This document shows, one piece after another, positions 1 through 20,981 of a stretch of DNA of 64,000 nucleotides. Under the pieces are notes generated by a model, which saw only the letters and a program-made list of their open reading frames with translations, searched no databases and had not been told where the DNA came from. Position 1 is the first letter of the stretch. The number at the start of each line of letters is the position of its first letter. Location of the stretch: NCBI GenBank assembly GCA_037130655.1, contig JBAXSP010000004.1:337-64336 (forward strand), given 5' to 3'. Position numbers and translations under genes: made by a program. Source of the stretch: a bacterium. Lineage in GTDB: Bacteria > Patescibacteriota > Minisyncoccia > Phycocordibacterales > UBA9973.

Positions 1-356
1 TTCTTGGTCATAATTGCCACATCTTCGGTAAATTGCCGAATGAATTCGATATATTCTTTTGTTTGAATTTTAAGGAGCGGTTCTGTTTGTTCCTCGTAGC
101 GTTTTTCCAAAATCATCAAATATGGACGAATGTCGAGACGTCGTGACTGAATTACGATTTGTGTAGAAAAATCGAGTGAATTCAAAAAAGATTGGAACTG
201 CATAAGCACCGCTTGTTGTTCATCAAATGATTTCAAAGAAAGGTTGATTGAAGATGCCAAAACAATAGCACGCAAACCGCCGCCTTTTAAGACAACGATA
301 CCGTCTCTTATTTCTTTGATTGGAACAAAATCTTGTGTTGCATTTTGTGTAGCCAT
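1..356 (-). CDS. Putative VirB4/TrbE-like type IV secretion ATPase, N-terminal fragment (the C-terminus lies beyond the window start)
   Basis: The frame is open from ATG (rc of 354-356) to the window edge. The translation MATQNATQDFVPIKEIRDGIVVLKGGGLRAIVLASSINLSLKSFDEQQAVLMQF resembles the N-termini of Gram-positive VirB4-family ATPases, and the gene lies directly downstream of a PrgI-like gene. It is not in the ORF track because no stop falls inside the window. Confidence 0.45.
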   Translation of the reverse strand, partial: MATQNATQDFVPIKEIRDGIVVLKGGGLRAIVLASSINLSLKSFDEQQAVLMQFQSFLNSLDFSTQIVIQSRRLDIRPYLMILEKRYEEQTEPLLKIQTKEYIEFIRQFTEDVAIMTK

Positions 357-376
357 TGCAAATATTATAGCACCAT

Positions 377-488
377 AATGACTAATTACTAATGACCAGT
401 GACTAGTAAAAGATTGATTTCACTTCGTGAAATCAATCTTTATTTATTTTTATATTAGTCATTAGTCATTGGACACTAGTCATTATTT
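377..488. repeat. Heptamer-array/terminator composite element, copy 1
   Basis: Left arm aatgactaattactaatgaccagtgactagtaa. Hairpin gattgatttcacttcgtgaaatcaatc followed by a T-run. Right arm ttagtcattagtcattggacactagtcatt. Sits between the PrgI stop and the VirB4-like start. Confidence 0.7.
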
Positions 489-891
489 ATTGCTGTCCTT
501 TATCCAAAACATCCAAACTCCATGCAATATCTCGAAGCTTTTCCTCGGTCAATTTATGGTTTGTGCCTGAGACAGGTGTTTGATCTTTTTTAATGATCTC
601 TTTTTTCTTTTGACCTGGCTGTTTCCAAATATACAGTTTGTTTGAAACAGAATAAGACAACCAAGATTGCAATATCACAATAAAAGGTTGATCATTTATC
701 TTATAAAATGCGAGCATGAGTGCAAGTCCCGCAAAAAATACCGCTACTGGCAGCCCCAAAAAAGACGGCAACAGCTTAAGCGACAAATACGTCAAACCCG
801 CACCACCTGCCAAATACAATGCTTGTTTCCAGGTAAGTGGACCAAAAATCTTGTCTTCGATATCAATAAATTGTGGTACTTTGAACTGCAT
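487..891 (-). CDS. PrgI-family small membrane protein (T4SS VirB3-like)
   Basis: 134 aa. The N-terminal MQFKVPQFIDIEDKIFGPLTWKQALYLAGG matches the characteristic PrgI-family signature (YxVPQ..E.EDKI.GP.T.RQ) and is followed by two hydrophobic helices. Confidence 0.6.
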   Translation of the reverse strand: MQFKVPQFIDIEDKIFGPLTWKQALYLAGGAGLTYLSLKLLPSFLGLPVAVFFAGLALMLAFYKINDQPFIVILQSWLSYSVSNKLYIWKQPGQKKKEIIKKDQTPVSGTNHKLTEEKLRDIAWSLDVLDKGQQ

Positions 892-917
892 AAGATAATA
901 GATACTTAATAATTAAC

Positions 918-1643
918 TTAAATTTCTTCGCGATAGACATCATTACTTCGAGAAGAGATGTTTTCTACTCTCGGCAGTGACTGGTCTGTCTTTGTACTAG
1001 GAATACCGAAACTACTATTTAGTTTTGTTTGGGCAATTCCTTTGAAAATAACTGGCTCACTTTTTGTTGGGTGCTCGATAGCTTCCATCAAATTTGCTTC
1101 ACTCATATTCTTGTTTGTAGTGTCGATTGCTGGCCCCATACGCTGTGTCAATTCATTTTGACTCGGCAATTCATCAAACGAAATTCCAGCATTTGAAAAT
1201 GTTTTCATTTCTCGCTTGTTGATATTTGCAACAATTTCATTTTCATTCGATTGAGGCTGAACAACCTCTTCTGCTGGCTCCTCTTCGATTTCAATTCCAG
1301 CATTATACATGATGTCTTCAGGCTCTTCTGGTGGTTTATATGAAAGCACGTCATTTTCTTCTGCAATAATAGCATTTAACGCTATTTTAAAAGGACCAAA
1401 AACTGTTGCATCGATATCTTTTATCATTGCAGACAATTGTGTGTCAGGTAGTCCTGTTTTTCTTAACTCTCCAGCAAAACCGTTCACATCAAGCGCTCCT
1501 TCAAGAAATTCTTTTATGATTGTTTGCATCATGTTAGTTTTTTCTTGTAGTCCATACTTGCCACAAACAACACCTATCAAATCATCTATCTTGATTTCAT
1601 GATATGCACCGTATATTTGAGTGATTGTTCCTAAGTTATTCAT
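918..1643 (-). CDS. Hypothetical acidic protein
   Basis: 241 aa ORF that is co-oriented and nearly contiguous with its flanking genes. No recognisable motif. Confidence 0.5.
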   Translation of the reverse strand: MNNLGTITQIYGAYHEIKIDDLIGVVCGKYGLQEKTNMMQTIIKEFLEGALDVNGFAGELRKTGLPDTQLSAMIKDIDATVFGPFKIALNAIIAEENDVLSYKPPEEPEDIMYNAGIEIEEEPAEEVVQPQSNENEIVANINKREMKTFSNAGISFDELPSQNELTQRMGPAIDTTNKNMSEANLMEAIEHPTKSEPVIFKGIAQTKLNSSFGIPSTKTDQSLPRVENISSRSNDVYREEI

Positions 1644-1646
1644 ATA

Positions 1647-4600
1647 TTATTTCTTTTCTTCTTTTGGTTTTCCTCCACTTTCTATTTTTTCTTTATTTTC
1701 TTTGATTTTTGTTTTGTTTGAATCAATTTGAGTAGTCAATGTCTCTTTTTGTCGAGAGAAATTTTTTCTATCAGATGAAACGCTTCCCAAGAATTTCATT
1801 CGAGAACGAATCTTATCGAGTTCTTTCTTATCTACTGTTCCGCTCTGTTCTTTTTGATACAATTCGTCTCGTAATGTTTCATTTTGTTCGAAGACATAAT
1901 CTTCTACTGTTGTAGTAATCATATCTTGCAACTGTTTCTCTTTTCGAATAATATTCTTAGCCATTTCTTCAGCTGATTTCTTTGCCTTCTTCTTCTCGTC
2001 ATCACTCAGTTCCGTGAAATTAGCAGCTTGTTTATCAGCATCAGTCATGTCAACAAACTTACCAGTTGCTGCGTCTCGTTTTTTACCAAGCTTCTTATTG
2101 ATTTCATCCTCTTCAGTAAGAATTGCTTTCTTTTCATCAACAATTTTCTTATATTCTTCATTGTTTGCTTTGAGGTCATCGATTTTATCTTTCAACGGCT
2201 TAAGTTCTGCGTTATTTTCTATCAAACCAGTATTTCTTGCCAATGCGCTTTCTGCTGCAGTAACTCTTCTTTCATTCTCTTTATTGGCGCGTTCAAGATC
2301 CTCATTTTGATTTTGAAGCTTAACTGCATCAGCCTTGGCTTTTTCACTTTGTTTTGCGTATTTCTCTTTGATATCTTTGTTAATACGATTATCAGCAACA
2401 GCACTTCCTAAAAGAGAAGCACCTACTACAGCACCGACACCTGTACCAACCAAAGCACTTCCTGCAACCGAGCCTGAAAAACGACCTGCACCACCAACAA
2501 CACCCGCAGCAACAACCCCTTGTGTAGCCCTGTCATTATCTTTTGACCTACCAATAAAGCTGGTTGCCTTATTGAGCACAGATCCGGTAACAGAGAAGTC
2601 GTCAAATCTTGTATCGAGACGTGCCAATAGTTTTTCAAGGCGATCATCTTCGACTTTTTTACGCATAGCTTTGATATCTTCTGGTTTTGCATCTTTACCA
2701 AGCTCTTCAAATCGCTTGCCATATTTTGCTTCGTGTTTTTTCTTGAATTCTTCTTCAAATTTCTTTTTCTCGTCGTCTGTTTTTGCTGCATAATTTGCTG
2801 CAATTTTTTCTTTTTCAATTTTATCTTTATATATTGTTTCGTACTTTTCAACCTGATTATCATGCATTTCTTTAAACTGAGTATCTGTGACATGTGATAT
2901 TTTTGATTGTCGCTCGATTTCTTTTTCCTTCTTTTCTTGTCGTTCTTTTTGATATGTAGCAAATCCTGTTTTATTTGCATCAAGACCAACGGCCCCCATA
3001 GAAAGACCGGCACCTCCAAGAAATGCATTTGTAGTTTTACCACTCATATCGAAACCTGATACCTTACTAAAACCACCTGACACCGCATTAAATCCTTTTG
3101 TATTTCTTACATCAAAAGAACCGTCTTTTGCTTTGTCAAAAGTTTTGAGACCAAGTTTTGCAAATTTACCACTAATACCACCTTTTGCTTCGGCCGCAGC
3201 CAATCGTTCAGCAAGCTTTGCTCCTGTCCCACTTGTTGCTGCAGCACCAAGTGTATTTCTTCCTATTAAAGCAGCTCCGCCAGTTGCCGCACCGAGAGCA
3301 ACACCACCAACAACACCTGCGGCTTGTGTAATTTTCCCTGCCAACTCCTTTGCAACTGATCCAGCCAAACTTACCGCAGTATCTTTTGCTTTTCCAAGCA
3401 TCACGATAATGAATATAAATGGCATGACAACTCCTAATATCCAAGAAGTGTTTGATTCGCCTGACTCCTTCAAAAGAGGTGCTCCGATTTGCACAAACAA
3501 CAATATCAAATACATAAACACCATAAAAATAGGTGCCATCATTGCTATCTTAAATGTCTCTTTCAACCAAGAATCAAATGAAATACCTCCCATTTTCCAC
3601 CCTTTTGGAAGAATATTAGAAACAAAAGCAAGTGGAGAAGTGATTGTCTGCACCCAAAGACCAATGACTCGTCCAACAAATAATATTCCTATCTTGAAGA
3701 AAATACCTGCACCAATCACATTAAGAATAACTGCGCAGATAGTAATGAGAATAAATGTAGTATTATCCAAATCACCACCACTACTAGCCTCGTTTCTTCC
3801 TGCATTTTTTGAATTTACATCATCATAAAGCTTGTCTTTTCCTTCGAGTACAATACGCTGTGGGTCGAAACCAGAAACAATCACCTCCGACATTCCATGA
3901 GCAACAGTTCGCTCGCCAGTACTTCTATCTATTTTGGTTATAGCGATTGTGTCTGAGTTATAAAACAACCTGGCCGTCACGTTCCCTGTATCAATAATAA
4001 TTCGAGTCAAGAAAAAACTAAAATTAATCGTAACCGCAGCAATAATAATCGGTATAATCATTTTTTTCCAATCAACACCACCTGTCTCAAGTAATGTACC
4101 GATTGCGATGTACATCATCATTACAATAAAAGCTATATTACAAAGATCACGCACAAGTGCCCACGCCTTTTGAACAAACTGCGATGAATTATCATAAGAA
4201 GAACTTTGAATCGAGTAGTCGAAAGTAAAATCAAACAACATACCCGCAACCATAAAGAGCCAAGATGTTGGTACATATAAAACATAATAGAGTAACTGCG
4301 CAAAACAACCTGACATCGAAATACCATCTGAAACACCCAGCCAGCATCTTGGCATACTTTCATCCGGATCAAGTGCACCTGCTTCACCTGACTGCTCAAG
4401 TGTGCCATTTGTCAATCCAATAGTTCCTTCTGCTTTATAATTAGCACCCCCAACCTGATCACTACCACCAGTCTTAAAAGTCATATTCTTAATAACATCA
4501 CCTCCTAGACCTTTATTAATTAATACTAATTGGGCAACATAATCAGTACCACTACCCAATCCCTCTATACGAAAAGATCCTTTTGTTTCAATATTTTGTG

Positions 4601-5135
4601 TATTAATTTGGATAGGAAATAAGAAAGCATTATTTGGAATAGAGCTGACACCCGAAACAGGAGTTGTTCCTTTATATACAACAATAAAAGCAGCATTATC
4701 TATTTTAATGTTTCTAATGGATTCATAATAAACAGCGCGAACCTTGGGAACGTCTTGCCCTGCGACTGTTTCTTTTTGAGAATAACCTATTTCAAGATCA
4801 TTCTTGCTATCAAAATAAACAGCGGATCCATATACCTGTACTTTATATGTACCATTGGCTTCTGCTGTTGGTTTATTGTTCCCAACATAATCATCTGCAT
4901 AATAATCAATTGTTTTCACTAAATTATTTGTTGAAACAAGGTCATATTCTATTTCATGTGTAGAATACCCTGTGTAATTACCTTTTGTACGAATATAACT
5001 TTTACTAAAATCATCGGACAAAGTAGATGCTTTTGCTATATTGGTAGAAAATCCTTGCAAAGAAAAAACAAGCGGAGAAAAAGCCAAGACTCCGAGAATC
5101 AAACTTATTACGCTCTTGGAAAAAAAGCGATACAT
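1647..5135 (-). CDS. Large polytopic membrane protein, possibly VirB6/TrbL-like, with Gly/Ala-rich and KE-rich coiled-coil C-terminal region
   Basis: 1162 aa. N-terminal signal/TM (MYRFFSKSVISLILGVLAFSPLVFS). The central region has multiple hydrophobic helices (e.g. LLYYVLYVPTSWLFMVAGMLFDFTF, IAFIVMMMYIAIGTLL, IIPIIIAAVTINFSFFLTRIIID). It sits in a cluster with PrgI and the VirB4-like gene. Confidence 0.4.
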   Translation of the reverse strand: MYRFFSKSVISLILGVLAFSPLVFSLQGFSTNIAKASTLSDDFSKSYIRTKGNYTGYSTHEIEYDLVSTNNLVKTIDYYADDYVGNNKPTAEANGTYKVQVYGSAVYFDSKNDLEIGYSQKETVAGQDVPKVRAVYYESIRNIKIDNAAFIVVYKGTTPVSGVSSIPNNAFLFPIQINTQNIETKGSFRIEGLGSGTDYVAQLVLINKGLGGDVIKNMTFKTGGSDQVGGANYKAEGTIGLTNGTLEQSGEAGALDPDESMPRCWLGVSDGISMSGCFAQLLYYVLYVPTSWLFMVAGMLFDFTFDYSIQSSSYDNSSQFVQKAWALVRDLCNIAFIVMMMYIAIGTLLETGGVDWKKMIIPIIIAAVTINFSFFLTRIIIDTGNVTARLFYNSDTIAITKIDRSTGERTVAHGMSEVIVSGFDPQRIVLEGKDKLYDDVNSKNAGRNEASSGGDLDNTTFILITICAVILNVIGAGIFFKIGILFVGRVIGLWVQTITSPLAFVSNILPKGWKMGGISFDSWLKETFKIAMMAPIFMVFMYLILLFVQIGAPLLKESGESNTSWILGVVMPFIFIIVMLGKAKDTAVSLAGSVAKELAGKITQAAGVVGGVALGAATGGAALIGRNTLGAAATSGTGAKLAERLAAAEAKGGISGKFAKLGLKTFDKAKDGSFDVRNTKGFNAVSGGFSKVSGFDMSGKTTNAFLGGAGLSMGAVGLDANKTGFATYQKERQEKKEKEIERQSKISHVTDTQFKEMHDNQVEKYETIYKDKIEKEKIAANYAAKTDDEKKKFEEEFKKKHEAKYGKRFEELGKDAKPEDIKAMRKKVEDDRLEKLLARLDTRFDDFSVTGSVLNKATSFIGRSKDNDRATQGVVAAGVVGGAGRFSGSVAGSALVGTGVGAVVGASLLGSAVADNRINKDIKEKYAKQSEKAKADAVKLQNQNEDLERANKENERRVTAAESALARNTGLIENNAELKPLKDKIDDLKANNEEYKKIVDEKKAILTEEDEINKKLGKKRDAATGKFVDMTDADKQAANFTELSDDEKKKAKKSAEEMAKNIIRKEKQLQDMITTTVEDYVFEQNETLRDELYQKEQSGTVDKKELDKIRSRMKFLGSVSSDRKNFSRQKETLTTQIDSNKTKIKENKEKIESGGKPKEEKK

Positions 5136-5157
5136 ATATACACAAAGTATATCACTG

Positions 5158-5258
5158 TCAGTTGATAGTTGTTAGTTGATAGTTGTGAGAAAAACAAAAG
5201 CGTGATGGACGAAGTCCATCACGCTTTTGTTTTTTATTAGTCACTAGTTATTGAACAT
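5158..5258. repeat. Heptamer-array/terminator composite element, copy 2 (variant left arm AGTTGAT/AGTTGTT)
   Basis: Left arm tcagttgatagttgttagttgatagttgtgag. Hairpin aaaagcgtgatggacgaagtccatcacgctttt. Right arm attagtcactagttattgaacatt. Confidence 0.6.
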
Positions 5259-5263
5259 TATAC

Positions 5264-7540
5264 TTATTGTCCAATTCCAAAGATTTTCTCAAATGTACTA
5301 CTGAAACCACATTTGTTTTTTGTATCATACAGTGGCTGTTGGCTTTGTTTAACACTATCATAATATGTCTTTCCTGTGTCATATGCTAAACCTAAATTAT
5401 ATCCATCTGACCAACTAATATCTGATTTACAATTAAATCCAATTCCATCACCTACTACACCTTGACCGTAGTCAAATGCTGCAAACGATCGCTGAACAGC
5501 ATCTTGTATGCCGGCCCACGGAACACCACCCTTTTGTTCTTTGTCTTCTTTTCCAAATGAATAAAATACATTCGTATTTGCATCTGCACGGGGATTGTTA
5601 TAATTAGTATACGAAACACTACCGTCTTTATTATACCGAGGAACATTAATCTTATAACCACCAACATCATCATCATCATCATACAAAGACTCACTTAAAT
5701 GTGTCCACGATAAAATCAATTCCTGTCCTTGTTTATGATTATCCCAACGACAATCTTGTGTATCCCCTGAGGCACTTGCTTGATCTGTGTCAAAAATAAT
5801 CGAACTATCAACATAAAATGGTGCGATTCGACGTTTTGGACTCTTTGATGGATCTGGCACCAAATCTCCATTTGCAATATCTTGTGTTTGCTCCTGACAG
5901 ATTGAGGTTAGTTCTTTGACGTAATTTTTTGAATTTTGTAATTCTTCAATATCATGACCGATACCTGCGATTGCTTCTGGTGTACGAATCTGTGGTAGTA
6001 ATCTGAAAAATTGTCTGAGCAACTTGTCATATTCCGCTTGTTCATCAGTTGTCAAAATAATTGGTGTATTTTGTCCTGAAGTACCATTTGAACAAGTATT
6101 TCCTGTAGTGTCTGGAACATAAGTATCAGTGTCGAAGAAATTATCCTTGTCGAGGTCTGGGCAGTATATTTTTTGCAAATTTAACGGAAGATTATCACAC
6201 AAATCAGTTCCTGTATTTGTTGTTTGTATTTGAATACTAGTATTTGCACGAAGGGTTTTACCTGCTTTAGTAACACAAGAGATAGCATAGCGTGAATCTT
6301 TGTTTTTTGGAGTTACTCCAAAATTTTGTACTGGAGTGGTGTTATCAGGTACAGGTTTTGAGCCGATCCATGACGATGTATCTACACCCCCAGTAGAAAC
6401 AGTTGCTCCTGCTCCGACTCCTTCACAAGAAGCAAATGCTGTGCCTGCAGGTGAAAACCAAAAGAGTGTACTTGTACCGTCTGGTTGCACCACTTCCGGT
6501 GAAGCAATCAAAGATAATTCTTTTGAAGCATCAGCATTTGGATTACATTCTGGCATCAAAACAGAAACATTTGCAGGATATATACTACAATCTTTTGTTG
6601 TATTCCCTGATGTTCCATCGTCAAGAATAAGTGCCACTTGAGCAACAACATATTCTTTTGGTGGAGTAGTGTCTGCTGTTTCTACCTGACTCTCTGCAGT
6701 ACCAAAACCAATAGTACTTGCAGTTTCAGTTTTTGCAGTAGAACTTAGTTGTGCTTGTACTGGTTTTTCACAGGTGAGCACATAGATAATTTCTTTGTCA
6801 CCATATGGCATTTGAGTTTTTTTGGTTTGCGGTTTTGTAGGTACTGGCTGTTTACCATTCCAGTTATATAACTTACTTTGTACATACGCAGTTGCGTTGA
6901 CACCTTTTGATTTCAAATCTTTTTGCTGATAGACCCCACCCGCATATGAACCAACGCAGCTTGCAAAATCCATTTTTGTTGGAGATGACCAAGAGATAGT
7001 GAGTTGATCTTTTGTTTTCGCCGTATCAGTTGAAGCGGTCACTACCAAATCTTTGGTTGCAATCGTATCTCTTTTGATTAACTCTTTGAGTGCATCCTCA
7101 TTGTTTGAGGGAATAGCAGAAGGTCCATTGTCTGAATTTGTATCTAATACATCTTGCAATAATTCAGTAGACGTATCTTTGCTATCAATAACACCATCTT
7201 TGTTGGTATCAATCACTGCATCTTTGTTGTTGATTACACCATCACCATTGGTATCTTTGGTTGGAATAAGTGAACCTTTTAAAGGAATAGTACTTCCGGT
7301 GGTTGATGATGCACTTGTGTTGTTTGTAGCATCTTCTGCTGTACCATTTTTGATGGTATCTTTTTTCTTTGGCAAAAGATTCCCAAGATCGACAAAAAAT
7401 TGCGCGCGTTGATTTGCGTCTTTGGTGATAGGATTTGCAACTTGCTTACTACCAATCAGTATCGCCAAAATTGCAACGACTAACACAACAAAAATAAGTG
7501 CTACTATTTTTATTCTTTTTTTCTTTTCTTCATTCATCAT
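5264..7540 (-). CDS. Secreted or membrane-anchored hypothetical protein with Asp-rich calcium-binding-like repeats (DTNGDGVINNKD / DTNKDGVIDSKD)
   Basis: 758 aa. N-terminal TM (IVALIFVVLVVAILAILIG), Thr/Ser-rich linkers, and tandem D-x-D-G-D-G-like repeats typical of thrombospondin type 3 or dockerin-like Ca-binding loops. Confidence 0.5.
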   Translation of the reverse strand: MMNEEKKKRIKIVALIFVVLVVAILAILIGSKQVANPITKDANQRAQFFVDLGNLLPKKKDTIKNGTAEDATNNTSASSTTGSTIPLKGSLIPTKDTNGDGVINNKDAVIDTNKDGVIDSKDTSTELLQDVLDTNSDNGPSAIPSNNEDALKELIKRDTIATKDLVVTASTDTAKTKDQLTISWSSPTKMDFASCVGSYAGGVYQQKDLKSKGVNATAYVQSKLYNWNGKQPVPTKPQTKKTQMPYGDKEIIYVLTCEKPVQAQLSSTAKTETASTIGFGTAESQVETADTTPPKEYVVAQVALILDDGTSGNTTKDCSIYPANVSVLMPECNPNADASKELSLIASPEVVQPDGTSTLFWFSPAGTAFASCEGVGAGATVSTGGVDTSSWIGSKPVPDNTTPVQNFGVTPKNKDSRYAISCVTKAGKTLRANTSIQIQTTNTGTDLCDNLPLNLQKIYCPDLDKDNFFDTDTYVPDTTGNTCSNGTSGQNTPIILTTDEQAEYDKLLRQFFRLLPQIRTPEAIAGIGHDIEELQNSKNYVKELTSICQEQTQDIANGDLVPDPSKSPKRRIAPFYVDSSIIFDTDQASASGDTQDCRWDNHKQGQELILSWTHLSESLYDDDDDVGGYKINVPRYNKDGSVSYTNYNNPRADANTNVFYSFGKEDKEQKGGVPWAGIQDAVQRSFAAFDYGQGVVGDGIGFNCKSDISWSDGYNLGLAYDTGKTYYDSVKQSQQPLYDTKNKCGFSSTFEKIFGIGQ

Positions 7541-7545
7541 ATATA

Positions 7546-9651
7546 TTAATGTACACCTACATTACCTGTTGTTCCATTGGCCGACCCAGTAGTGGTACCA
7601 TTTGTTGTATTGTTGGTTGTGTTATTACTTGTTGCATTCCCACCAATTCCTGTTGCAGTACCTGCGCCAGTTGTTGTACCTCCAGGACCATATGTTGCAC
7701 CACCGCCGACACTTGTCGTACCGTTGGCATTACCAGTATTTCCAAAAATTCCACCAAATGGTTCTATTGTGCCGAGACAAGCCGGATCAATTGGAAGTGC
7801 ATTAATATTATCTACTTGTACTTTTTGCCCTGGGCCATATTTTAGTTTTGCTTCATCCGCCAAACGTTTGTATACCCTATTCATCAAATTATCCATTTTC
7901 TTTTGAACTGCAAAAACTTGATTGGTTGTTGCCATAACATCGATAGCTTCGTTTTGATTGTCTAAAATTTGCTGTGAATATTGTGGCCACAGTTCAAGTT
8001 CTTTGTTGGCAGTTCTTGCTATCGGCATGACGTTTGGATTTGTCACATATGTGTTGCTGATGAAGTTGTTGTACAGATCAACTGAATCTCGATATGAACC
8101 ACGGAGTACAGAGAGGATGCCGTTAATGATTGTCTGAGCATCAATTGATTTCCAAAAACTCTGCCAGCCACTAACAGTAACACTTTTGATTAGAGCATTA
8201 TGCAACCCATCAAGACGACTATTGATAACAGCATCAGCATTATCTTCCCATCCAGGACGAGGACCAGGAATACAATAGGAAAGATCGTGCAGTGGGTACC
8301 CACACCAATCTGTTGTCATCTCATTCAAATTATCACTATATTTAGCCAAACTAGATTCATAGTTTACATTCCCTGAACCTGCACTTGCTTTGTTTAATTG
8401 CTTGATTCGACGAGCAACTGACGGAGCATCTTTGTTTGCACTATACTGATCGAGTGTTTTTTGGTCTCCAATATAACTGAGCTGTGTAATCAACACGTCA
8501 GGCAGTATTTCATGATCAAACACCCGTGGGTCGATTGGTTTGTTTGGGGCAACTTTCAACCAATCAGATGCATCACCATTCGTAAAACCACCACTAATAC
8601 CTGAGACGGAATTATTAAGCCCAGGACCACCTGATGCATAAGAATCGGTAGTTTTTCCTTTTGAAAGACTTGAAAGACCTCGTTTGATCAATTGATCGGT
8701 CAATGCAGTGAAGATTTTTGAAACAGACGTATTTACATCATTAGCGATTTCAAGTTGGCGACCCGTTGTCCCAAGTGCTTGATTGATTTGATTTTGCACC
8801 ACAGAACCAGGTGTGACCACCTCCCATCGATTACAAGTAACTTTTGGATCTGCTTTGTGTGCTTCGACATACCCTGCTGGGTCTACACATTTTTTGACTG
8901 ACAAAAAGTTTGGTTGTGACAATTCTGCTTGTACTGCGCCAACTTTTTGATTGATAAGCTTATCTGATTCTTCAGCAAGATTGATACTCACCCCTAGTGG
9001 ATTATTTCTTTCACTGAGTGTCACACTTTTCCAAGCAGCCCAACCACCACCTTCACTAAAATCTTTTTTGAACACTTTTGGATCAGGACCAGTATATTTG
9101 AAATTATCGAGCGGACTCAAAGATACTTTTCTGTCAGTAATCAATTGCCGAAGTGCAGATTTTGCATACGGAGAAAATGATGGGTCGTCTTCATATTTTG
9201 CAAGTAATCCATTTTTGAGACCATTGATTGATTCATTTTCAATACTCGCAAAAAAAGATTCACGATTTCGAATATACAGCGGATTTCCATCAAATCCACT
9301 ATTAATCCAGTTAACAATACTTTCAGTAAGTTGTTGTAATACTACACGAGCAAGAGATACAGCAATCGCATCAATACAAGCTTTTGTATTGTTTGCTTTT
9401 GCTTGTTGTTTGTCATCAACCTTAACAGCGGCAGTACCTAGTGTCGATCCAGCTTTTTCTTTTGCTTTTTCTTTAAGACCTGAAATAATTCCTTTCCCAA
9501 GCAAACAACCCGCCAATGAAGATGCTGTAGCCGAACCGAGCGAAGCACCAAGTGAAGCACCGTCGAGCGCTTCAGCTTTTGGAGGAATAGCAACAATCAA
9601 AAAACTAACGAGCAGTATTGAGGTGATTGTTTTTTTGAAAAAAGTAAGCAT
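7546..9651 (-). CDS. Secreted hypothetical protein with C-terminal Gly/Thr/Asn-rich low-complexity tail
   Basis: 701 aa with an N-terminal signal peptide (MLTFFKKTITSILLVSFLIVAIPPKAEA). The C-terminal ~70 aa are GTTTGAGTATG-type low complexity. Confidence 0.5.
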   Translation of the reverse strand: MLTFFKKTITSILLVSFLIVAIPPKAEALDGASLGASLGSATASSLAGCLLGKGIISGLKEKAKEKAGSTLGTAAVKVDDKQQAKANNTKACIDAIAVSLARVVLQQLTESIVNWINSGFDGNPLYIRNRESFFASIENESINGLKNGLLAKYEDDPSFSPYAKSALRQLITDRKVSLSPLDNFKYTGPDPKVFKKDFSEGGGWAAWKSVTLSERNNPLGVSINLAEESDKLINQKVGAVQAELSQPNFLSVKKCVDPAGYVEAHKADPKVTCNRWEVVTPGSVVQNQINQALGTTGRQLEIANDVNTSVSKIFTALTDQLIKRGLSSLSKGKTTDSYASGGPGLNNSVSGISGGFTNGDASDWLKVAPNKPIDPRVFDHEILPDVLITQLSYIGDQKTLDQYSANKDAPSVARRIKQLNKASAGSGNVNYESSLAKYSDNLNEMTTDWCGYPLHDLSYCIPGPRPGWEDNADAVINSRLDGLHNALIKSVTVSGWQSFWKSIDAQTIINGILSVLRGSYRDSVDLYNNFISNTYVTNPNVMPIARTANKELELWPQYSQQILDNQNEAIDVMATTNQVFAVQKKMDNLMNRVYKRLADEAKLKYGPGQKVQVDNINALPIDPACLGTIEPFGGIFGNTGNANGTTSVGGGATYGPGGTTTGAGTATGIGGNATSNNTTNNTTNGTTTGSANGTTGNVGVH

Positions 9652-9653
9652 AC

Positions 9654-10541
9654 TTAGTTGTTTTTTGGATTAAGTGCAAATAACTGACTACCTATTTCAG
9701 TAAATTCATCGTTATACTTTTTGTACTGAATAATACCGGGCATCGCTACAGTTGCATTATCATACAAAAGTGATAATTTTTTAAGTGCAATACCTACTTT
9801 GATAGAACTATTTGCAAAACGACGGTGTAATTCTACTACATCAGCAGGTACTTTCATTTTTGCAAGCGCACCACCGAGCCCTATATACGCATTACTTACA
9901 TCATCCAAATCTTTTATTCCGTTACGATCTTCATTTTGAAGTGTATACGCAAGTATACCAACCTCATTACCAGCGCCTTGTTTTTCATAAGTAGTGACAA
10001 TTGATTCTAATTCTTTCAAATATTTCTTCTTGTTTTCTACTGTCGAAGGAACACTGCTAATTTTTTCTTTTGAAATAGCGTCAGGCAAAGTATCGTCAGA
10101 AGTAATCTTGTCAGCCAATGTTATTGCGAGCACACTAGCTGATTCATCATTGAGCGCACCTGAGTCTTTGAGTACCATCAAAGAAGAAAAGAATTCTTGT
10201 GCGATTTTATCTGTTTCATTGGTGTCACCACCGCCATTTTGTGAGAGTGATTCACGTTTTTTAGATATATAAGTCAAATCATCAACACCATTGAAAGTGG
10301 CAACTTTTTTTGGATCAGTCCCCCAAAGTGATTCTTCCCAGTCAGCAACACCATCACCATCAGTATCGATAAACACCGCTTCTTTGAGTGTAGCGTTTTG
10401 AATTTTACCTTTTCTTCCGATAGAACCAACGAGACTAGACCAATTAACATATTTAACAAGCACCACAAGCAATAAAATCCCAATAATTATAAGGATTTTT
10501 TTTGAAAATTGTTTACTTGGAAGATATTGTTGAAATGACAT
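9654..10541 (-). CDS. Membrane-anchored hypothetical protein with DTDGDGVADWEE calcium-binding-like motif
   Basis: 295 aa. N-terminal TM (ILIIIGILLLVVLV). Its start overlaps the stop of the upstream gene, which implies an operon. Confidence 0.5.
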   Translation of the reverse strand: MSFQQYLPSKQFSKKILIIIGILLLVVLVKYVNWSSLVGSIGRKGKIQNATLKEAVFIDTDGDGVADWEESLWGTDPKKVATFNGVDDLTYISKKRESLSQNGGGDTNETDKIAQEFFSSLMVLKDSGALNDESASVLAITLADKITSDDTLPDAISKEKISSVPSTVENKKKYLKELESIVTTYEKQGAGNEVGILAYTLQNEDRNGIKDLDDVSNAYIGLGGALAKMKVPADVVELHRRFANSSIKVGIALKKLSLLYDNATVAMPGIIQYKKYNDEFTEIGSQLFALNPKNN

Positions 10542-10544
10542 ATA

Positions 10545-10913
10545 TTATCTGCTTACATTAAATCTTTTTGGTGCAATTGACCATGAAGGGACAAATGCGC
10601 CTGTTTCCGTGTTGTAACATGTATTGTAATCAATACTGTATCTACCTAAAATTTGTTGTCCTGCCCGAAGTGTTTTACTTGATTCAGAAACAAAAAATGG
10701 TAAGATTATAAATTTTGAACCGATCGGAGCAATGGTCATTGGTCCGTATTGAGCACCGCACGCAACCTGACTTTCAGCAGTGTTATTGAGTTGTCGAATT
10801 TTCCCACCAAAATTAAACGATGGACCGATAGCAAATGTATTTGTAGCAAAAGAAAATCCGAGCGCAACAAATACACTCAAAAATAATAACGAACGAATTT
10901 TAGAGTGACTCAT
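10545..10913 (-). CDS. Small secreted hypothetical protein
   Basis: 122 aa with a signal peptide (LLFLSVFVALGFSFATNTFA). Its start abuts the ksgA stop. Confidence 0.45.
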   Translation of the reverse strand: MSHSKIRSLLFLSVFVALGFSFATNTFAIGPSFNFGGKIRQLNNTAESQVACGAQYGPMTIAPIGSKFIILPFFVSESSKTLRAGQQILGRYSIDYNTCYNTETGAFVPSWSIAPKRFNVSR

Positions 10914-11830
10914 TACTTCAGTATACTAGAGCGCGACAAAGCCAACCACTCTTTTATGTGCAAATCTTCGGCGCGGATGTTTGAGGGAATTTTCGATTCC
11001 TCAAACATCCGCGCAATCACCTCACTTTGTATTCCACCTTCCTTCAAATTATGCGCCAATGTCTTTCGTTTGTGACCAAAACCAAGATGAATTAATTCAA
11101 AAAAAGCTTTTTCTTCTTTGGTATTCTTAAAATTACTACGAGAAATGTTTGAAATCGACAAAATAGCCGAATCAACCTTTGGTGCTGGCACAAATGAGCC
11201 TGCTTTCACAACATCGACGAGTTTTGGTTCACCAAAAGCTTTGATTGAAATAGAAAGAAGTGAACCTTTCTCGTCACGAGCAACCGCACGCTCAGCAACT
11301 TCTTTTTGCACCAAAACAACGATTTTACTTGGCTGAACCACTTCTTCGAGGAATTTCCGGACGATTGCACCTGTTATATAGTAGGGAATGTTTGCGATTA
11401 ATTTGTATGTGATTACGTCCGAAGTTTTCTCGATGGTCTGTTTTTTCAAAGGTCCTGCGGAGGCGGGTAGCCGAGCACGAGCCGATTTTTCACCAGAAAA
11501 ATACGGCGTACCTTTGAAAAAGCAGGACCATTCTAACATTGCGTTCTTAATTGGAATTTCTAATATATCTCCCTCAATAAGTAATAGTTGTTTATTTTCA
11601 AGCTCTTTCGAAAATTTTTCACGTAACAAAGGTATCAATTCACGGTCTTTTTCAATTGCCACGACTTTTGCACCAGTTTTGAGTAAACTTTCAGTCAAAA
11701 TACCGGTTCCAGGACCGATTTCAAGCACCGTATCAGTTTTTTTGAGCTCTCCGGCTTCGACAATCTGTCTGACCGCCTTTTCTGACTTCAAAAAATTCTG
11801 CCCGAGGGATTTTTTAGCTTTGTATTCCAT
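10913..11830 (-). CDS. rsmA: 16S rRNA (adenine1518-N6/adenine1519-N6)-dimethyltransferase RsmA/KsgA, carrying a ~40-aa in-frame insertion
   Basis: Diagnostic N-terminal KKSLGQNFL motif, SAM-binding LEIGPGTGILT, and NIPYYIT (the E. coli NLPYNIS equivalent). About 37-40 extra residues (AMLEWSCFFKGTPYFSGEKSARARLPASAGPLKKQTIEKTSDVIT) lie between the EGDIL and NIPY motifs. Confidence 0.9.
   Translation of the reverse strand: MEYKAKKSLGQNFLKSEKAVRQIVEAGELKKTDTVLEIGPGTGILTESLLKTGAKVVAIEKDRELIPLLREKFSKELENKQLLLIEGDILEIPIKNAMLEWSCFFKGTPYFSGEKSARARLPASAGPLKKQTIEKTSDVITYKLIANIPYYITGAIVRKFLEEVVQPSKIVVLVQKEVAERAVARDEKGSLLSISIKAFGEPKLVDVVKAGSFVPAPKVDSAILSISNISRSNFKNTKEEKAFFELIHLGFGHKRKTLAHNLKEGGIQSEVIARMFEESKIPSNIRAEDLHIKEWLALSRSSILK
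11434..11530. mobile_element. MITE-like palindromic element (TTTTTCACCAGAAAAA-core family, copy A) inserted in frame inside ksgA
   Basis: Terminal inverted repeats tggtctgttttttcaaaggtcc / ggtacctttgaaaaagcaggacca flank a core gcggaggcgggtagccgagcacgagccgaTTTTTCACCAGAAAAAta. The core is shared with the copies at 43604, 51863 and 62320. Confidence 0.55.
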
Positions 11831-11928
11831 GGAGCAAGTATATCAGTATTTCAGTAGTCAGAATATAGAAATAAAAAAAGGGCTTCGCAAGCGAAGCCCT
11901 TAAGGGTACAAAAGAAAAAAGAAAAGGA

Positions 11929-12667
11929 TTAGAAATTGACTTGTCGAGGACCGCGGACCGCATTGCGATTGTCACGATCGAGCCAGTCCAAGCAGAAACG
12001 ACCATCGCCACCCCTGCCCATGCAGAGCACGCAGTCATCGGAATCCAAGGCATGAAAACGAGTCACTCCTTTGACATCAAGCATATTGTTCGTCTCAAAG
12101 CGGTAACGAAGGGCAAATATAATTCCTTCAATAGGGATCATATATTTATTGCCATCACTGCAAAAATCATCATAGCTTTTGTTCAAATGCTTTTTGTCCG
12201 GCTCAACAGTACCAACGTGCGTAATGCAATAATTACCATCGGGACGAAATTGCTTGGTTTTTGTACAAGCATCGATATCCTTTGAATAGTCATTATTGTA
12301 CACACTTTTGTCGCCAAAAAGTTTTTTGTACACTTGTATCCATTGTTTGCCCGTAATCGAGCGTTGCAAATTCTTCGGAATACTCTGGCAATGTTACTAA
12401 ATTCCAATCAATTTCTTGTGCAGGCAATCCAAGAATTTCATAGACTTTGTTGTAAAAGTTCTGAATTTTCTCTTGTTGTTCTGCCCAAGAAAAAGTGCTT
12501 TTGATACCGAAAATTTCTTTTCGTTTTGACATCGGCATCAGCATAAATGACTGAAGGCATTTGATAAAATCAGGGTTCTGCTTTTTGACTGCTGAACGGA
12601 GATTTTTGTTAACTTCGTGTTGTAGAGCAAACGCAGTGTCTGCATCTACGATGATTTCTTTGTTCAT
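11929..12667 (-). pseudogene. Hypothetical gene split by a +1/-1 frameshift into two overlapping ORFs (12293..12667 and 11929..12369); either a pseudogene or a sequencing error
   Basis: Two minus-strand ORFs in adjacent frames overlap by 77 nt. The shift falls around the homopolymer run gtacaaaaaactttttggcg. The downstream frame is blocked by TAG and TAA just upstream of the overlap. Confidence 0.4.
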
Positions 12668-12852: not shown

Positions 12853-14760
12853 CTAGAGATAAATCACCCTCCCCAAATTACTTTGCCATTCTTCTTTTTC
12901 AATCAACTCTTCCGGAATATCAAATAAAAATTCTGATGGTACGGTAATTTGTCGTTGTCCGAAAATAGTTCGAATCGTCGCATACGTCAAAAACAATTTT
13001 TTACGTGCACGAGTGACGGCCACATAAAAGAGTCGGCGCTCTTCTTCTTTTTCTTCGACTTTTGTTTGTCCGTCTCGTTCAAGTGGAAAGAGTCCGTGTT
13101 CAAGCCCAACAACAAACACATATTCAAACTCCAATCCTTTCGATGCGTGTACCGTCATCAAACGTGCTGAGTTGTTTTGTTCATCAATACTATCTTGATC
13201 AGAGACCAATGCAACTTCTTCGACAAACGCCATGAGTGCTTCTTCAGGTGGCAAGTGGTTCCATTTGGTCGCAACAGTCGCGAGTTCTTCCATGTTTGCC
13301 AATCGCTCACGATCTTCGTCGGTACCGGCTTCCAATTCTTTTTTCAATCCAGTTTTTTCAATGATGTATTTGATGAGCAAGTCAGTTGTATGTGTTTCTC
13401 CGTACACACGAATGTCTTCAAGTAATGCAAAAAATCCATCAACCTTTTTACTCATTGCTGGTGGCAAGGCTTCGCGTTGTTCAGCAAATACTTTCAATAT
13501 TGTTGTCTTGCCGATACCACGAGCAGGTACATTGATGATACGTTTCAAATCAGATAGTGAATCTGGATTGAGGGCCGCACGTACATATGAAATGATATCT
13601 TTAACTTCTTTTCGATCGAAGAATTTTGTTCCGACGATTTGATAATGTAATCCGCGATTCATAAACATATCTTCGAATGTTCGAGATTGGAAGTTCGCAC
13701 GATAGAGTATTGCAATTTCATTTCCTTTGACCCCCTGATCAAGTAATTCAGTTATTTTGTCGACAACAAATTCTGCTTCGTATTTTTCATCATAACCTTC
13801 ATAGAGTCCGACAAGTGCACCGTCTTCACCATTGGTAAACAATGTCTTGTCTTTGCGATTTTTATTTTTCTTGATGATTTCATTTGCAACACTCAAGATA
13901 TTTTTGGTTGAACGATAATTTTCTTCAAGTAATACAATTTTTGCATCAGGATAATCTTTTTCAAAATTCAAAATATTATTGACGTTTGCACCACGCCAAC
14001 TATAAATCGTCTGATCACCGTCACCGACAACACACAGGTTACGATATTTTTTGGCTAGCAATTTTGCAAGCGTATATTGCACTTCGTTAGTGTCTTGATA
14101 TTCATCAATATGAATATAGTGATATCGTTCTTGCCATTTTTCTAACACGTCCGGATGTTTCTGAAACAGTGTCACGGTCTTCAACAAGAGATCGTCGAAG
14201 TCAACACTGTTTTCTCTTTTGAGTGCAGCTTCATATGCTTCCCAAATTTTGAGCACTGTTTTTCCAAACATACTTTCAGCTTTTTCTCGATATGCATCAA
14301 CAGTCACAAACTCACCTTTTTCGCGAGAAATAATTCCACGGAATTTTTTGGGTTCGTATTGTTTTGGATCAAGACCAAACGCAATGATTGCATCTTTAAT
14401 GAGTGCATTAGTATCGGCAGTATCGGCAATCGTAAACATTTTTTTCAAGCCGACTTTTTCATATTCTTCTCGAAGTACACGAACGCCAAATGAGTGAAAT
14501 GTCGTCAGTGTTGGCAATGATGAAACAGTTCCAATTTCTTTTTCGATGAGTGAAACCGCGCGTTCGCGCATTTCTCCGCCAGCTTTATTCGTGAAAGTAA
14601 TCGCAAGGATTTGATGTGGTGGAACGCCGTTTTTGATGAGCTCTACAATACGATGGGTGAGAGTCTTTGTCTTACCTGCACCAGCACCTGCCAAAATGAG
14701 CATTGGTCCATCTTTGTGCAAAACTGCTTGTAATTGTGCATCGTTCAATGAGTGTGACAT
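12853..14760 (-). CDS. ATP-dependent DNA helicase, UvrD/PcrA/Rep family
   Basis: 635 aa. N-terminal LNDAQLQAVLHKDGPMLILAGAGAGKTKTLTHRI (Walker A of SF1 helicases), followed by the DEYQDTN and VGDGDQTIYSWRGA motifs. Confidence 0.9.
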   Translation of the reverse strand: MSHSLNDAQLQAVLHKDGPMLILAGAGAGKTKTLTHRIVELIKNGVPPHQILAITFTNKAGGEMRERAVSLIEKEIGTVSSLPTLTTFHSFGVRVLREEYEKVGLKKMFTIADTADTNALIKDAIIAFGLDPKQYEPKKFRGIISREKGEFVTVDAYREKAESMFGKTVLKIWEAYEAALKRENSVDFDDLLLKTVTLFQKHPDVLEKWQERYHYIHIDEYQDTNEVQYTLAKLLAKKYRNLCVVGDGDQTIYSWRGANVNNILNFEKDYPDAKIVLLEENYRSTKNILSVANEIIKKNKNRKDKTLFTNGEDGALVGLYEGYDEKYEAEFVVDKITELLDQGVKGNEIAILYRANFQSRTFEDMFMNRGLHYQIVGTKFFDRKEVKDIISYVRAALNPDSLSDLKRIINVPARGIGKTTILKVFAEQREALPPAMSKKVDGFFALLEDIRVYGETHTTDLLIKYIIEKTGLKKELEAGTDEDRERLANMEELATVATKWNHLPPEEALMAFVEEVALVSDQDSIDEQNNSARLMTVHASKGLEFEYVFVVGLEHGLFPLERDGQTKVEEKEEERRLFYVAVTRARKKLFLTYATIRTIFGQRQITVPSEFLFDIPEELIEKEEWQSNLGRVIYL

Positions 14761-14790
14761 TGTATTACTTTATCACACGTGCGTGAAAAT

Positions 14791-17970: not shown

Positions 17971-19221
17971 ATGTGTAGAGCATCAAGAAAGCTTATTTAT
18001 ACAAAAAAACCAAAAAATGTTTCTTCCTCTCCTCGTACTACATTGAAGAAACAGTTATATCGAAACAAAAACCTGACACTTGGGACAGTGGCGTTATTTG
18101 CTATTTTTGCATACACAACAACAGACGCTACGGTGTTTGATAAAATCGCAGCCTTTTTCCAAAGCAAGCCAGTAGTCAAAAGCAATTCTCAGACAGTTGC
18201 ATTACTTGATCCACTCAACAGCACTGAGAATGCTGGTATTCCAGTCCTCTTAGAAGGAGATGATTCTCTTTCTGCCGAAACAGGACCAATGGGCACACAA
18301 GCTGATATTGAAGACTATTACCCAGCAAGTGATGAGATTCAAACATACACAACAAAAGATGGTGACACATTGAAAGGTATTGCAAAAATGTTTGACGTTA
18401 GTCCAAGTACTATTATCTGGGCAAACAACCTTGATACAAATACAAAACTAACAACCGGGCAAACATTGGTTATTCTCCCTGTTTCTGGATTACAGTATAC
18501 ACCTAAAAAAGGAGATACTGTTGGTGGGATTGCAAAACGTTTTGGTGTAGACCCTGAAGATATTACTTCTTTCAACGGCATTTCTACACTAACAACCGGC
18601 GAAGCAATCATTGTTCCAAATGGTGAAATGGAAAAACCAACACCTGTTGAGAAAAAACCAGTAAAACAAATAGCAAAAACAACTAAAGAACCGGTGATCA
18701 TCAAAAAAGGAGAAACAGTATTCGATAGAACAATTGGAAGTGTCTTTAGTCTTGCTGGTCCACAAAAAGGTGAAACTGTTGCACGCTCAAGACGTGGTGA
18801 AAAAATTTGGGGATTCAATGCACCGGCATTCAAAGATTACTATATCTTCCCGGTAGAAGGTGGAATCAAAACTCAAGATCTTCATGGATTCAATGGTATC
18901 GATATTGGATATCCTGGTAGAGCTGGTGGTGCCCCAATCAAAGCCGCAGCAGCAGGAACAGTCATTGTTGCAAAAGATACTGGGTCAAACGGAGGATACG
19001 GAAAATATGTCGTTATCGCTCACAACAATGGAACACAGACACTCTACGCCCACAACTCAAAAAATGCAGTCTCAGTTGGTGACACGGTCAAACAAGGAGA
19101 AGTAATTGCATATATGGGAAGAACAGGGAAAGCAACTGGATACCACGTACACTTTGAAATTCGCGGAGCCAAAAACCCATTTGCTACAAGTTTCAATAGT
19201 GACAATACAAGTAACGACTAA
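17971..19221 (+). CDS. LysM-domain M23-family peptidoglycan endopeptidase
   Basis: Two LysM repeats (YTTKDGDTLKGIAKMFDVSPSTIIWANNL and YTPKKGDTVGGIAKRFGVDPEDITSFNGI) and a C-terminal M23 signature (GIDIGYP...YVVIAHNNGTQTLYAHNS...GRTGKATGYHVHFEIR). The true start may be an internal Met. Confidence 0.85.
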   Translation: MCRASRKLIYTKKPKNVSSSPRTTLKKQLYRNKNLTLGTVALFAIFAYTTTDATVFDKIAAFFQSKPVVKSNSQTVALLDPLNSTENAGIPVLLEGDDSLSAETGPMGTQADIEDYYPASDEIQTYTTKDGDTLKGIAKMFDVSPSTIIWANNLDTNTKLTTGQTLVILPVSGLQYTPKKGDTVGGIAKRFGVDPEDITSFNGISTLTTGEAIIVPNGEMEKPTPVEKKPVKQIAKTTKEPVIIKKGETVFDRTIGSVFSLAGPQKGETVARSRRGEKIWGFNAPAFKDYYIFPVEGGIKTQDLHGFNGIDIGYPGRAGGAPIKAAAAGTVIVAKDTGSNGGYGKYVVIAHNNGTQTLYAHNSKNAVSVGDTVKQGEVIAYMGRTGKATGYHVHFEIRGAKNPFATSFNSDNTSND

Positions 19222-19322
19222 ATAATGACCAATTGCCAATGACTAGTGACTAAAAATCGTATGAAGACTTCGTCTTCATACGATTTTTTAATTGGTCATT
19301 AGTCATTAGACACTAGTCATTG
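19221..19322. repeat. Heptamer-array/terminator composite element, copy 3 (between convergent genes)
   Basis: taatgaccaattgccaatgactagtgacta / aaaatcgtatgaagacttcgtcttcatacgatttt / aattggtcattagtcattagacactagtcatt. Confidence 0.75.
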
Positions 19323-20876: not shown

Positions 20877-20977
20877 TAATGACCAATTACTAATGACCAA
20901 TGACCAATGACCAATAATTCGAAAAACACGAAGCCAAAGGCTTCGTGTTTTTATTAGTCATTAGTCACTAGTCATTA
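20877..20977. repeat. Heptamer-array/terminator composite element, copy 4
   Basis: taatgaccaattactaatgaccaatgaccaatgaccaata / gaaaaacacgaagccaaaggcttcgtgttttt / attagtcattagtcactagtcatt. Confidence 0.75.
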
Positions 20978-20981
20978 TCTT

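Follow-up and report, generated by a model that had tools for sequence, protein, structure and literature searches.

A probable origin-proximal type IV secretion locus in a Paceibacteria genome, its partner genes and its intergenic hairpin elements

The DNA studied here is a stretch of 64,000 nucleotides from a patescibacterial genome (contig JBAXSP010000004.1 of assembly GCA_037130655.1, positions 337 to 64,336), referred to below as the window. Its first 11,830 positions hold nine open reading frames (ORFs), all on the minus strand, some of which resemble components of a type IV secretion system (T4SS) and others of which encode large exported proteins. A first-pass annotation made from the letters alone had described them as one operon. 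Is this locus a T4SS, of what kind, and do the exported proteins and the two elements lying between the genes belong to it? We are confident, short of certainty, that positions 1-11830 are the upstream half of a chromosomal, origin-proximal T4SS locus of the 'Patescibacteria clade', related to the mating-pair formation type FATA (MPF-FATA), of Paceibacteria/Nomurabacteria, transcribed in at least three units and with a role in host contact. The locus is an ordinary member of an already described system and nothing in it is categorically new. The first-pass annotation was correct that minimal VirB4/PrgI/VirB6 sets are known in the candidate phyla radiation (CPR), this system having been published already.

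The type IV secretion core

The assignment to a T4SS is upheld by the 134-aa PrgI/VirB3-like protein, which scores above the Pfam cutoff (PF12666, 1.3e-9, 38.9 bits against 27), by matches of the ORF at the window edge to VirB4 N-terminal models, and by the alignment of a 1162-aa protein to a relative bearing a TrbL domain. The edge ORF had been taken for the VirB4 ATPase, which it is not. With the truncated fragment as query it matched the NCBIfam models VirB4_plasma (5e-8) and TrsD (1.7e-7). A Logan contig of the same genome, L001, carries it as a full gene of 210 codons, and the complete protein covers positions 13-200 of the 201 positions of TrsD (2.8e-9) and positions 100-279 of VirB4_plasma (7.7e-12), in both cases below the curated NCBIfam cutoff. 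This TrsD-like protein is 99-100% identical to its counterparts in the closest relatives, L002 and L003, where the VirB4 ATPase, of 676-679 aa, is encoded by the following gene. The 679-aa ATPase of L003 reached 373 bits with the CD1110 VirB4 model (cutoff 325) and 1.8e-31 with VirB4_CagE, and a match to P-loop_TraG was also recorded. As the edge gene encodes an N-domain protein and the ATPase is a separate next gene in the relatives, VirB4 is, on sequence grounds, divided between a TrsD-like N-domain protein of 210 aa and, in the relatives, an ATPase of ~610-680 aa. This division is kept in 85 of 85 loci.

The 1162-aa protein is probably VirB6-like, to judge by transitive similarity, topology and position. 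It has a signal peptide, a variable ectodomain (residues ~30-270), a transmembrane (TM) core (~270-630) and a C-terminal region that is Gly/Ala-rich and forms a Lys/Glu-rich coiled coil; in the TM profile the segments cluster between residues ~280 and 625, behind a signal-like N-terminus. Residues 273-630 align to residues 60-422 of protein P0016 (E=6e-32), which bears the NCBI name type IV secretion system protein and matches TrbL (PF04610, 1.3e-5) over residues 159-365. TrbL was matched by three of 18 members of the VirB6-like family, just below the cutoff (25.5 bits against 25.9 at best). None of 72,556 plasmids was matched when the TM core was searched by tblastn.

No protein of the window matched T4SS_pilin in Pfam or NCBIfam. 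The small protein p122 was considered as a VirB2-like pilin and rejected, having a signal peptide and no second TM segment. PHROGs gave nothing of relevance beyond a match of the TrsD fragment to a terminase, which is put down to chance.

Gene layout of the locus

The ORF sizes, the strand and the tight junctions are as the first-pass annotation described them, and all of its ORFs were found. The bounds given to the cluster were right insofar as the ORFs within them are all real, but ksgA lies just beyond the end at 10913. The junctions measure -1, 3, 2, 5, 3 and 26 nt, except for two gaps of 128 and 130 nt, each holding an element. In the order of transcription the features are as follows.

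11837-11901, minus strand: intrinsic terminator (11901-11878), then an extended -10 box, TGATATACT, at 11845-11837, 6 nt before the ksgA ATG
10913-11830, minus strand: ksgA/rsmA, 16S rRNA dimethyltransferase, 305 aa (PF00398, 1.9e-51), a housekeeping neighbour that would head the upstream transcription unit
10545-10913, minus strand: p122, small secreted protein of 122 aa with a signal-like segment at residues 5-29; its start overlaps the ksgA stop by 1 nt
9654-10541, minus strand: p295, 295 aa, with an N-terminal TM anchor, a TSP3-type Ca-binding motif and an extracytoplasmic helical bundle; a conserved family
7546-9651, minus strand: p701, 701 aa, secreted and predicted all-helical, with conserved Cys residues, a WINSGF.G.P motif and a tail rich in G/T/N; a conserved family
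5264-7540, minus strand: p758, 758 aa, membrane-anchored surface protein in a variable slot
5136-5263, minus strand: intergenic element with a 21-bp hairpin (5190-5234), stop-containing heptamers on both sides and an extended -10 box, TGATATACT, at 5154-5146
1647-5135, minus strand: VirB6-like polytopic protein, 1162 aa
918-1643, minus strand: p241, acidic protein of 241 aa without a TM segment, occupying the VirB6-PrgI interval
487-891, minus strand: PrgI/VirB3-like membrane protein, 134 aa, with a TM hairpin at residues 35-66
357-486, minus strand: intergenic element with heptamer arrays at 379-405 and 456-482 around a 15-bp hairpin (409-441) and an extended -10 box, TGCTATAAT, at 372-364
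1-356, minus strand: TrsD/TraC-like protein, first 118 of 210 codons (truncated ORF 3-356, ATG at 356), leaving the window

The p701 and p295 proteins are identical to WCO58_02560 and WCO58_02565 of a metagenome-assembled genome (MAG) at NCBI, and the related loci derive from MAGs labelled Nomurabacteria, Paceibacteria or Paceibacterota.

Conserved partner families and synteny

One genome per GTDB species was scanned, which gave at least 461 loci; 80 of them were fetched and their ORFs were used in iterated profile searches. Presence was counted over the 45 loci whose upstream flank was 9 kb or longer, and the length of this flank limits the counts for p295 and ksgA. The first-pass annotation had let its reading depend on whether the large proteins also occur in the clusters of relatives. 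They do: p701 is present in 41 of these loci and p295 in 34, compared with 44 each for PrgI and the VirB6-like protein, 25 for ksgA, nine for p758-like and six for p122-like proteins. The recurring order is ksgA, p295, p701, a variable slot, the VirB6-like gene, the p241 family, PrgI and the TrsD-like gene. Because this order recurs in 45 species-level loci, p295 and p701 are, as far as gene order and homology can tell, conserved partners of the locus and not a local expansion. The description of the module as expanded here with three very large proteins was therefore mistaken; p295 and p701 are standard in Paceibacteria loci and only p758 is lineage-specific.

The spacing of the genes differs along the locus. 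In 38 of 39 loci no more than 65 nt separate p295 from p701, and the gap between p701 and the VirB6-like gene is 6-124 nt wherever the two are adjacent. The variable slot, which is the interval between the latter two, is filled in 22 of 41 loci and vacant in the other 19. The distance between ksgA and p295 varies between 3 and 1245 nt, and in several loci genes of the opposite strand lie between the two. Six metagenomic relatives share the order uvrD, ksgA, sometimes a small gene, a gene for ~295 aa, one for ~660-930 aa, none or one variable gene, the VirB6-like gene, one to three genes, PrgI, the TrsD-like gene and VirB4. On the 3' side of VirB4 the relatives encode a protein of ~318-320 aa, a wall enzyme of the YkuD, VanY or NlpC_P60 type that is fused to a weak pilin-like domain and a protein of ~440 aa; in the more distant ones, L004-L006, jag, yidC, rnpA and dnaA come next. 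In L002 (9565-9970) prgI lies in two ORFs of 100 and 36 aa that jointly match the 134-aa PrgI, which is a frameshift or a sequencing error.

The p295 homologues form 85 clusters with lengths of 290-320 aa. Residues D59, D67, W68, E70 and G74, five of the seven invariants of a 66-member family, are all located in the Ca motif, and TSP3_bac scored 20.2 bits against a Pfam cutoff of 25. An AlphaFold2 model, with a mean predicted local distance difference test (pLDDT) of 81.6, has a TM helix, a loop with the Ca motif and a helical bundle. Foldseek found nothing in the PDB at E<=0.001 for this model (the best, at E=0.59, were four-helix bundles). A VirB8-like identity, which implies an NTF2 fold, was rejected, the model being an all-helical bundle and not alpha/beta.

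For p701 there are 28 homologue clusters, all unnamed, with invariant W115, N117, G119, C273 and P281. Its AlphaFold2 model, built from 25 sequences, is predicted to be helical but has a pLDDT of 43, so that the fold is unreliable. A profile search against PDB sequences returned coiled-coil noise only, and no related family was found in Pfam, NCBIfam or PHROGs.

The acidic character ascribed to p241 was confirmed (40 D+E against 21 K+R). The protein has no match in Pfam, NCBIfam or PHROGs, and ten proteins at the same position in relatives matched no Pfam family. Single-linkage clustering of ORFs at this position in other loci gives a group of 95 members, to which p241 is connected at E=3.7e-7, and p241 would thus represent a fast-evolving family that always occupies the VirB6-PrgI interval.

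The slot protein p758 is anchored at its N-terminus. Residues 96-135 hold two or three EF-hand/dockerin-like Ca loops, and the protein also contains an unclassified domain of ~100 aa, present twice, and a Cys-rich C-terminal part. It is a near-orphan, with four matches, one of them full-length, among 1.84 billion representatives and none in Pfam. The only link for its loops is an alignment to P0134, a protein with Dockerin/EF-hand domains. The motifs reported by the first-pass annotation are all present (DTDGDGVADWEE in p295, DTNGDGVINNKD and DTNKDGVIDSKD in p758), yet the label of giant Ca-binding-repeat proteins is overstated, as p295 has one motif, p758 two or three loops and p701 none. No family match was obtained for p122, and none of p122, p295, p701 and p758 matched a T4SS family.

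A hyper-divergent segment in the VirB6-like gene

Nucleotide identity to L002 is ~80% through p295, p701 and p758. From the start of the VirB6-like gene (5140) to the N-terminal part of p241 (~1340), a block of ~3.8 kb, it is ~50%, recovering in part to 60-72% over the TM core. Identity is again 72-85% beyond ~1340 and over most of PrgI, is 64.5% over the element at 357-486 and reaches 94.5% in the TrsD-like gene. Compared with the proteins of L002/L003, the VirB6 ectodomain (residues 50-250) has an identity of 12-32% and the TM core one of about 70%, while neighbouring proteins reach 78-100%. The block could be the result of diversifying selection or of allele exchange. Moreover, PrgI is closer to L003 (93%) than to L002 (85%), whereas p758 is 37% identical to L003 and 78% to L002. 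As L003 is nearer in one gene and further in the other, the locus is a mosaic.

Intergenic elements and transcription units

Both elements described by the first-pass annotation are real. Their hairpins are perfect, and compared with shuffled sequences the 15-bp hairpin at 409-441 (-47 kcal/mol) has a z-score of -9.3 and the 21-bp hairpin at 5190-5234 one of -6.7. With A/T runs on both sides they resemble bidirectional intrinsic terminators. Each element is made up of a hairpin of unique sequence and two to five tandem heptamers per side facing it. The tandem heptamer pattern TGACYARTGACYA, with one mismatch allowed, has 50 occurrences in the window where 0.46 would be expected, and the copies are always directed toward the hairpin. 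Across the 64 kb there are ~13 such elements, all intergenic and at the ends of many unrelated genes:

377-488: element copy
5158-5258: element copy
19205-19330: element copy
20880-20990: element copy
22364-22464: element copy
35540-35655: element copy
37446-37591: element copy
46015-46125: element copy
49885-50000: element copy
51740-51810: element copy
55290-55370: element copy
58255-58380: element copy
63127-63250: element copy

Being generic, they are not specific to the T4SS cluster, and their description as attenuators of a T4SS operon is not supported.

The heptamers are mostly (A/G)TGAC(T/C)A, with the variants CTAGCTA, CTAGTGA and TTGATAG. In all of these forms a stop codon recurs once every 7 nt, so that the three frames are all closed; pairs of stops at a spacing of 7 nt number 77 in 54 arms, against 12.8±3.6 in shuffles. 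One possibility is that the arrays are all-frame ribosome-release buffers that shield the terminators. The exact heptamer does not occur in 85 other Paceibacteria loci; L002 and L003 have the stop-containing TAATTAG at the same junction, and the period of 7 alone is mildly enriched in the other loci (61 against 40.5±6.3). A literature search returned no description of period-7 all-frame stop arrays, and Rfam matched only tRNAs, placing the elements in no known RNA family. In L001 a further heptamer array (15386-15412) begins 7 nt after the stop of the TrsD-like gene, at the end of the contig. It likely marks a fourth boundary, before virB4, in this genome, and the repeat element is probably what breaks the assemblies there.

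Each of the two elements is followed by a promoter-like box. TGATATACT lies 10 nt before the ATG of the VirB6-like gene at 5135, and TGCTATAAT lies 7 nt before the ATG of the TrsD-like gene at 356. Both junctions of L002/L003 carry hairpins of other sequence, followed by near-identical downstream sequence with the extended -10 box, again TGATATACT at 10 nt before the VirB6-like ATG and TGCTATA(A/C)T at 7 nt before the TrsD-like one; before their TrsD-like genes the hairpin and TGCTATACT-N7-ATG are kept. The same type of box, TGnTATAMT, is found exactly 6 nt ahead of the start codon in ksgA and in six further genes of the window, all but one of them after a gap of at least 70 nt:

11837-11845: extended -10 box, ksgA
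14767-14775: extended -10 box
22328-22336: extended -10 box
25151-25159: extended -10 box
45205-45213: extended -10 box
48650-48658: extended -10 box
58380-58388: extended -10 box

This suggests that leaderless mRNAs may be widespread in the genome. With a conserved extended -10 box placed behind each of the two hairpins, the sequence points to at least three transcription units, rather than to one attenuated operon. The most economical reading is that these would run from ksgA to p758, from the VirB6-like gene to PrgI, and from the TrsD-like gene onward.

Genomic context of the window

The locus is chromosomal. The window contains dnaA (40504-41856) and dnaN (42237-43334), and its cumulative GC skew has a minimum near 40 kb; the T4SS locus is ~30-40 kb from dnaA, with ksgA at ~29 kb. 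In the region 40230-40503 nusA (minus strand) and dnaA (plus strand) diverge and the gene strand bias flips, and the replication origin region is probably located near there. In L003 yidC lies 3' of the T4SS locus on the same strand, and in L004-L006 the locus abuts jag, yidC, rnpA and dnaA.

A scan of 28 ORFs of the window, among them all those of at least 250 aa in the 64 kb except a 635-aa ORF at 12853-14760 (its L001 counterpart matches UvrD-helicase families), revealed no relaxase or VirD4 domain. The other large ORFs are housekeeping genes and a PilB-type ATPase. The latter, of the PilB/GspE type (50007-51710, T2SSE 3.8e-108), has heptamer elements on both flanks and places type IV pilus machinery near the origin. 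A protein with Por_Secre_tail, the C-terminal sorting domain of the type IX secretion system, is encoded beside a fatty-acid desaturase (30994-32001 and 32041-33138); both are unusual for a monoderm, lipid-auxotrophic Patescibacterium. The KsgA protein itself has 305 aa against 256-282 aa in relatives, and the alignments imply an insertion of ~40 residues (WSCFFKGTPYFSGEKSARARLPASAGPLKKQTIEK..., ~residues 100-140) in the methyltransferase domain. Upstream of it, at 11929-12667, two overlapping ORFs (124-146 aa) without relatives in the syntenic loci are situated between uvrD and ksgA, which directly adjoin each other in the relatives; they may be an inserted or frameshifted gene.

Alternative explanations

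The locus could be read as a single operon from ksgA to virB4, with the elements acting as attenuators or RNA-processing sites that tune stoichiometry. The genes are co-oriented with tight junctions, the tails of the hairpins lie partly within the stems so that leaky termination is possible, and many relatives have only 0-40 nt at the same junctions, with no room for an element. Nevertheless the conserved box placed 7-10 nt before the next ATG after each element, its recurrence before ksgA and the other genes listed above, and the generic occurrence of the elements at unrelated gene ends make the single co-transcribed operon of the first-pass annotation unlikely. A second explanation separates the exported proteins from the T4SS: p122, p295, p701 and p758 would be ordinary envelope proteins held in place by a frozen gene order near the origin. 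In this genome they would be co-transcribed with ksgA, a putative terminator lies before the VirB6-like gene, uvrD and ksgA are just as syntenic, and the four proteins match no T4SS family. This would not account for the close spacing of p295, p701 and the VirB6-like gene, which differs from the loose and interrupted one between ksgA and p295, nor for the extracytoplasmic nature of p295 and p701 and a position matching the place of the pCF10 surface-protein genes, upstream of prgH, and we regard it as somewhat unlikely.

Two further explanations concern what the machine would carry. A T4SS of a conjugative plasmid or an integrative and conjugative element (ICE) that moves DNA would agree with the similarity of VirB4, which is closest to the conjugative CD1110 and mycoplasma-ICE models, and with a gene order collinear with that of pCF10. 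However, no relaxase, coupling protein or element-type integrase adjoins the cluster and no element borders were found in the window; the absence of relaxase and coupling protein nearby argues against conjugation. The same chromosomal neighbourhood, with uvrD, ksgA, yidC, rnpA and dnaA as flanks, is also found in 45 species, and a survey of these systems reports relaxases to be rare, near virB4 in only 15 genomes (PMC12102498), all of which renders a conjugative element extremely improbable. A DNA-import machine like ComB or Ced, feeding nucleotides or DNA to a reduced genome, is a proposal that the first-pass annotation had cited. The VirB4 of L003 has a weak match to CedB (7e-11) and an export-type coupling protein is lacking, but the 41 bits with CedB are far under the 373 bits with the conjugative VirB4 model. 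Furthermore, competence of S. epibionticum needs ComEC and type IV pili and is dispensable (PMC12857230) while its T4SS is essential (PMC10633639). DNA import is consequently very unlikely as the function.

The preferred reading, a Patescibacteria-clade T4SS locus in at least three transcription units with a role in host contact, has to face several findings that weigh against it. The window does not reach the ATPase and the remaining machine, which are known only from relatives with identities of 44-100%. Neither Pfam nor NCBIfam gave a direct VirB6 match for the 1162-aa protein; the VirB6-like profile found no solved VirB6 structure in the PDB, only low-complexity matches, and hhalign with PrgH of pCF10 was weak (probability 4.6%). 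What ties p295, p701 and p758 to the T4SS is synteny alone, while ksgA and uvrD, equally syntenic, are clearly unrelated to secretion; here the three proteins would share a transcription unit with ksgA, and a putative terminator sets them apart from VirB6. The hairpins, moreover, may terminate only partially. Finally, experimental tests of T4SS function are known only from Saccharimonadia, and not from Paceibacteria.

Proposed mechanism

From established knowledge of T4SS, VirB4 with its detached TrsD-like N-domain would dock on PrgI/VirB3 and work with VirB6 as a membrane translocon, and the downstream wall enzymes seen in relatives would open the peptidoglycan. A less firm suggestion is that the extracellular part facing the host is formed or decorated by the VirB6 ectodomain together with p295, p701 and the slot protein, because these are extracytoplasmic and, in many genomes, tightly linked to VirB6 and because the upstream surface genes of pCF10 are analogous. 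With neither a relaxase nor a coupling protein nearby, the machine would serve an exchange with a host cell that depends on contact, rather than conjugation.

Comparison with known systems

A Patescibacteria-specific VirB4 clade related to MPF-FATA, with TrsD as its most abundant associated component, is described in Quinonero-Coronel et al. 2025 (PMC12102498), together with PrgI/VirB3 and VirB6 near virB4 and the proximity of dnaA, dnaN, rnpA and ksgA in Paceibacteria. Wang et al. 2023 (PMC10633639) showed that S. epibionticum requires its T4SS cluster for epibiotic growth and that the cluster has no recognisable coupling or relaxase proteins; it comprises SEML1_0006-0019, and the supplement lists VirB6-like proteins of ~1000 aa beside PrgI. 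A 2025 FEMS review restates the findings on the T4SS of Patescibacteria (PMC12857230). The present locus and its relatives share with this clade the set of TrsD-like protein, PrgI/VirB3, large VirB6-like protein (that of S. epibionticum being of similar size), VirB4 and downstream wall hydrolase, as well as the chromosomal location near ksgA/rnpA/dnaA and the lack of a relaxase or type IV coupling protein (T4CP) nearby. It differs in that this part of it has no array of VirB2-like pilins, the relatives having only the weak pilin-like domain fused to YkuD or VanY, and in its distance from dnaA, ~30-40 kb instead of a place beside rnpA and dnaA. The p295, p701 and p241 families are unnamed in the sections of PMC12102498 and PMC10633639 consulted and searched by term.

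Among the MPF-FATA conjugative plasmids of Gram-positive type, pCF10 has the collinear order PrgH (VirB6), PrgI (VirB3), PrgJ (VirB4) and PrgK (hydrolase), with surface-protein genes upstream, and in the Trs/Tra systems of pGO1/pIP501 a separate TrsD/TraD protein likewise precedes VirB4 (NCBIfam NF041427). Unlike these plasmids, the locus has no relaxase, T4CP, PrgB-type LPXTG adhesin or mobile element. PrgH has 266 aa against the 1162 of the VirB6-like protein, with weak similarity by hhalign, and an hhalign comparison of p295 with PrgD gave no match. The Rvh/VirB6 paralogues of Rickettsiales are extended VirB6 proteins, and the protein found here resembles such proteins in combining a VirB6 TM core with large hydrophilic extensions. 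It differs from them in the monoderm nature of the cell, its single copy and an N-terminal secreted ectodomain that is nearly unrelated among close relatives. Extended VirB6 proteins are described in general terms in the FEMS review (PMC12857230).

Significance

The period-7 stop-codon arrays near terminators are perhaps of wider interest for transcription punctuation in small genomes. To our knowledge the T4SS of Patescibacteria is the only one known to be essential for the growth of its owner. In Paceibacteria loci p295, p701 and p241 are as conserved as VirB6 and PrgI, while the VirB6 ectodomain and the adjacent slot gene turn over fast between close relatives; all of these are candidates for the missing surface or host-recognition parts of the system. 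It is a rather doubtful proposal, put forward tentatively, that p295-p701, the slot protein (here p758) and the N-terminal ectodomain of VirB6 make up a host-contact module in which the divergent segment and the turnover of the slot gene would set the host range of the epibiont. If this were true, p295 and p701 would be structural families of the T4SS without a counterpart in any described T4SS.

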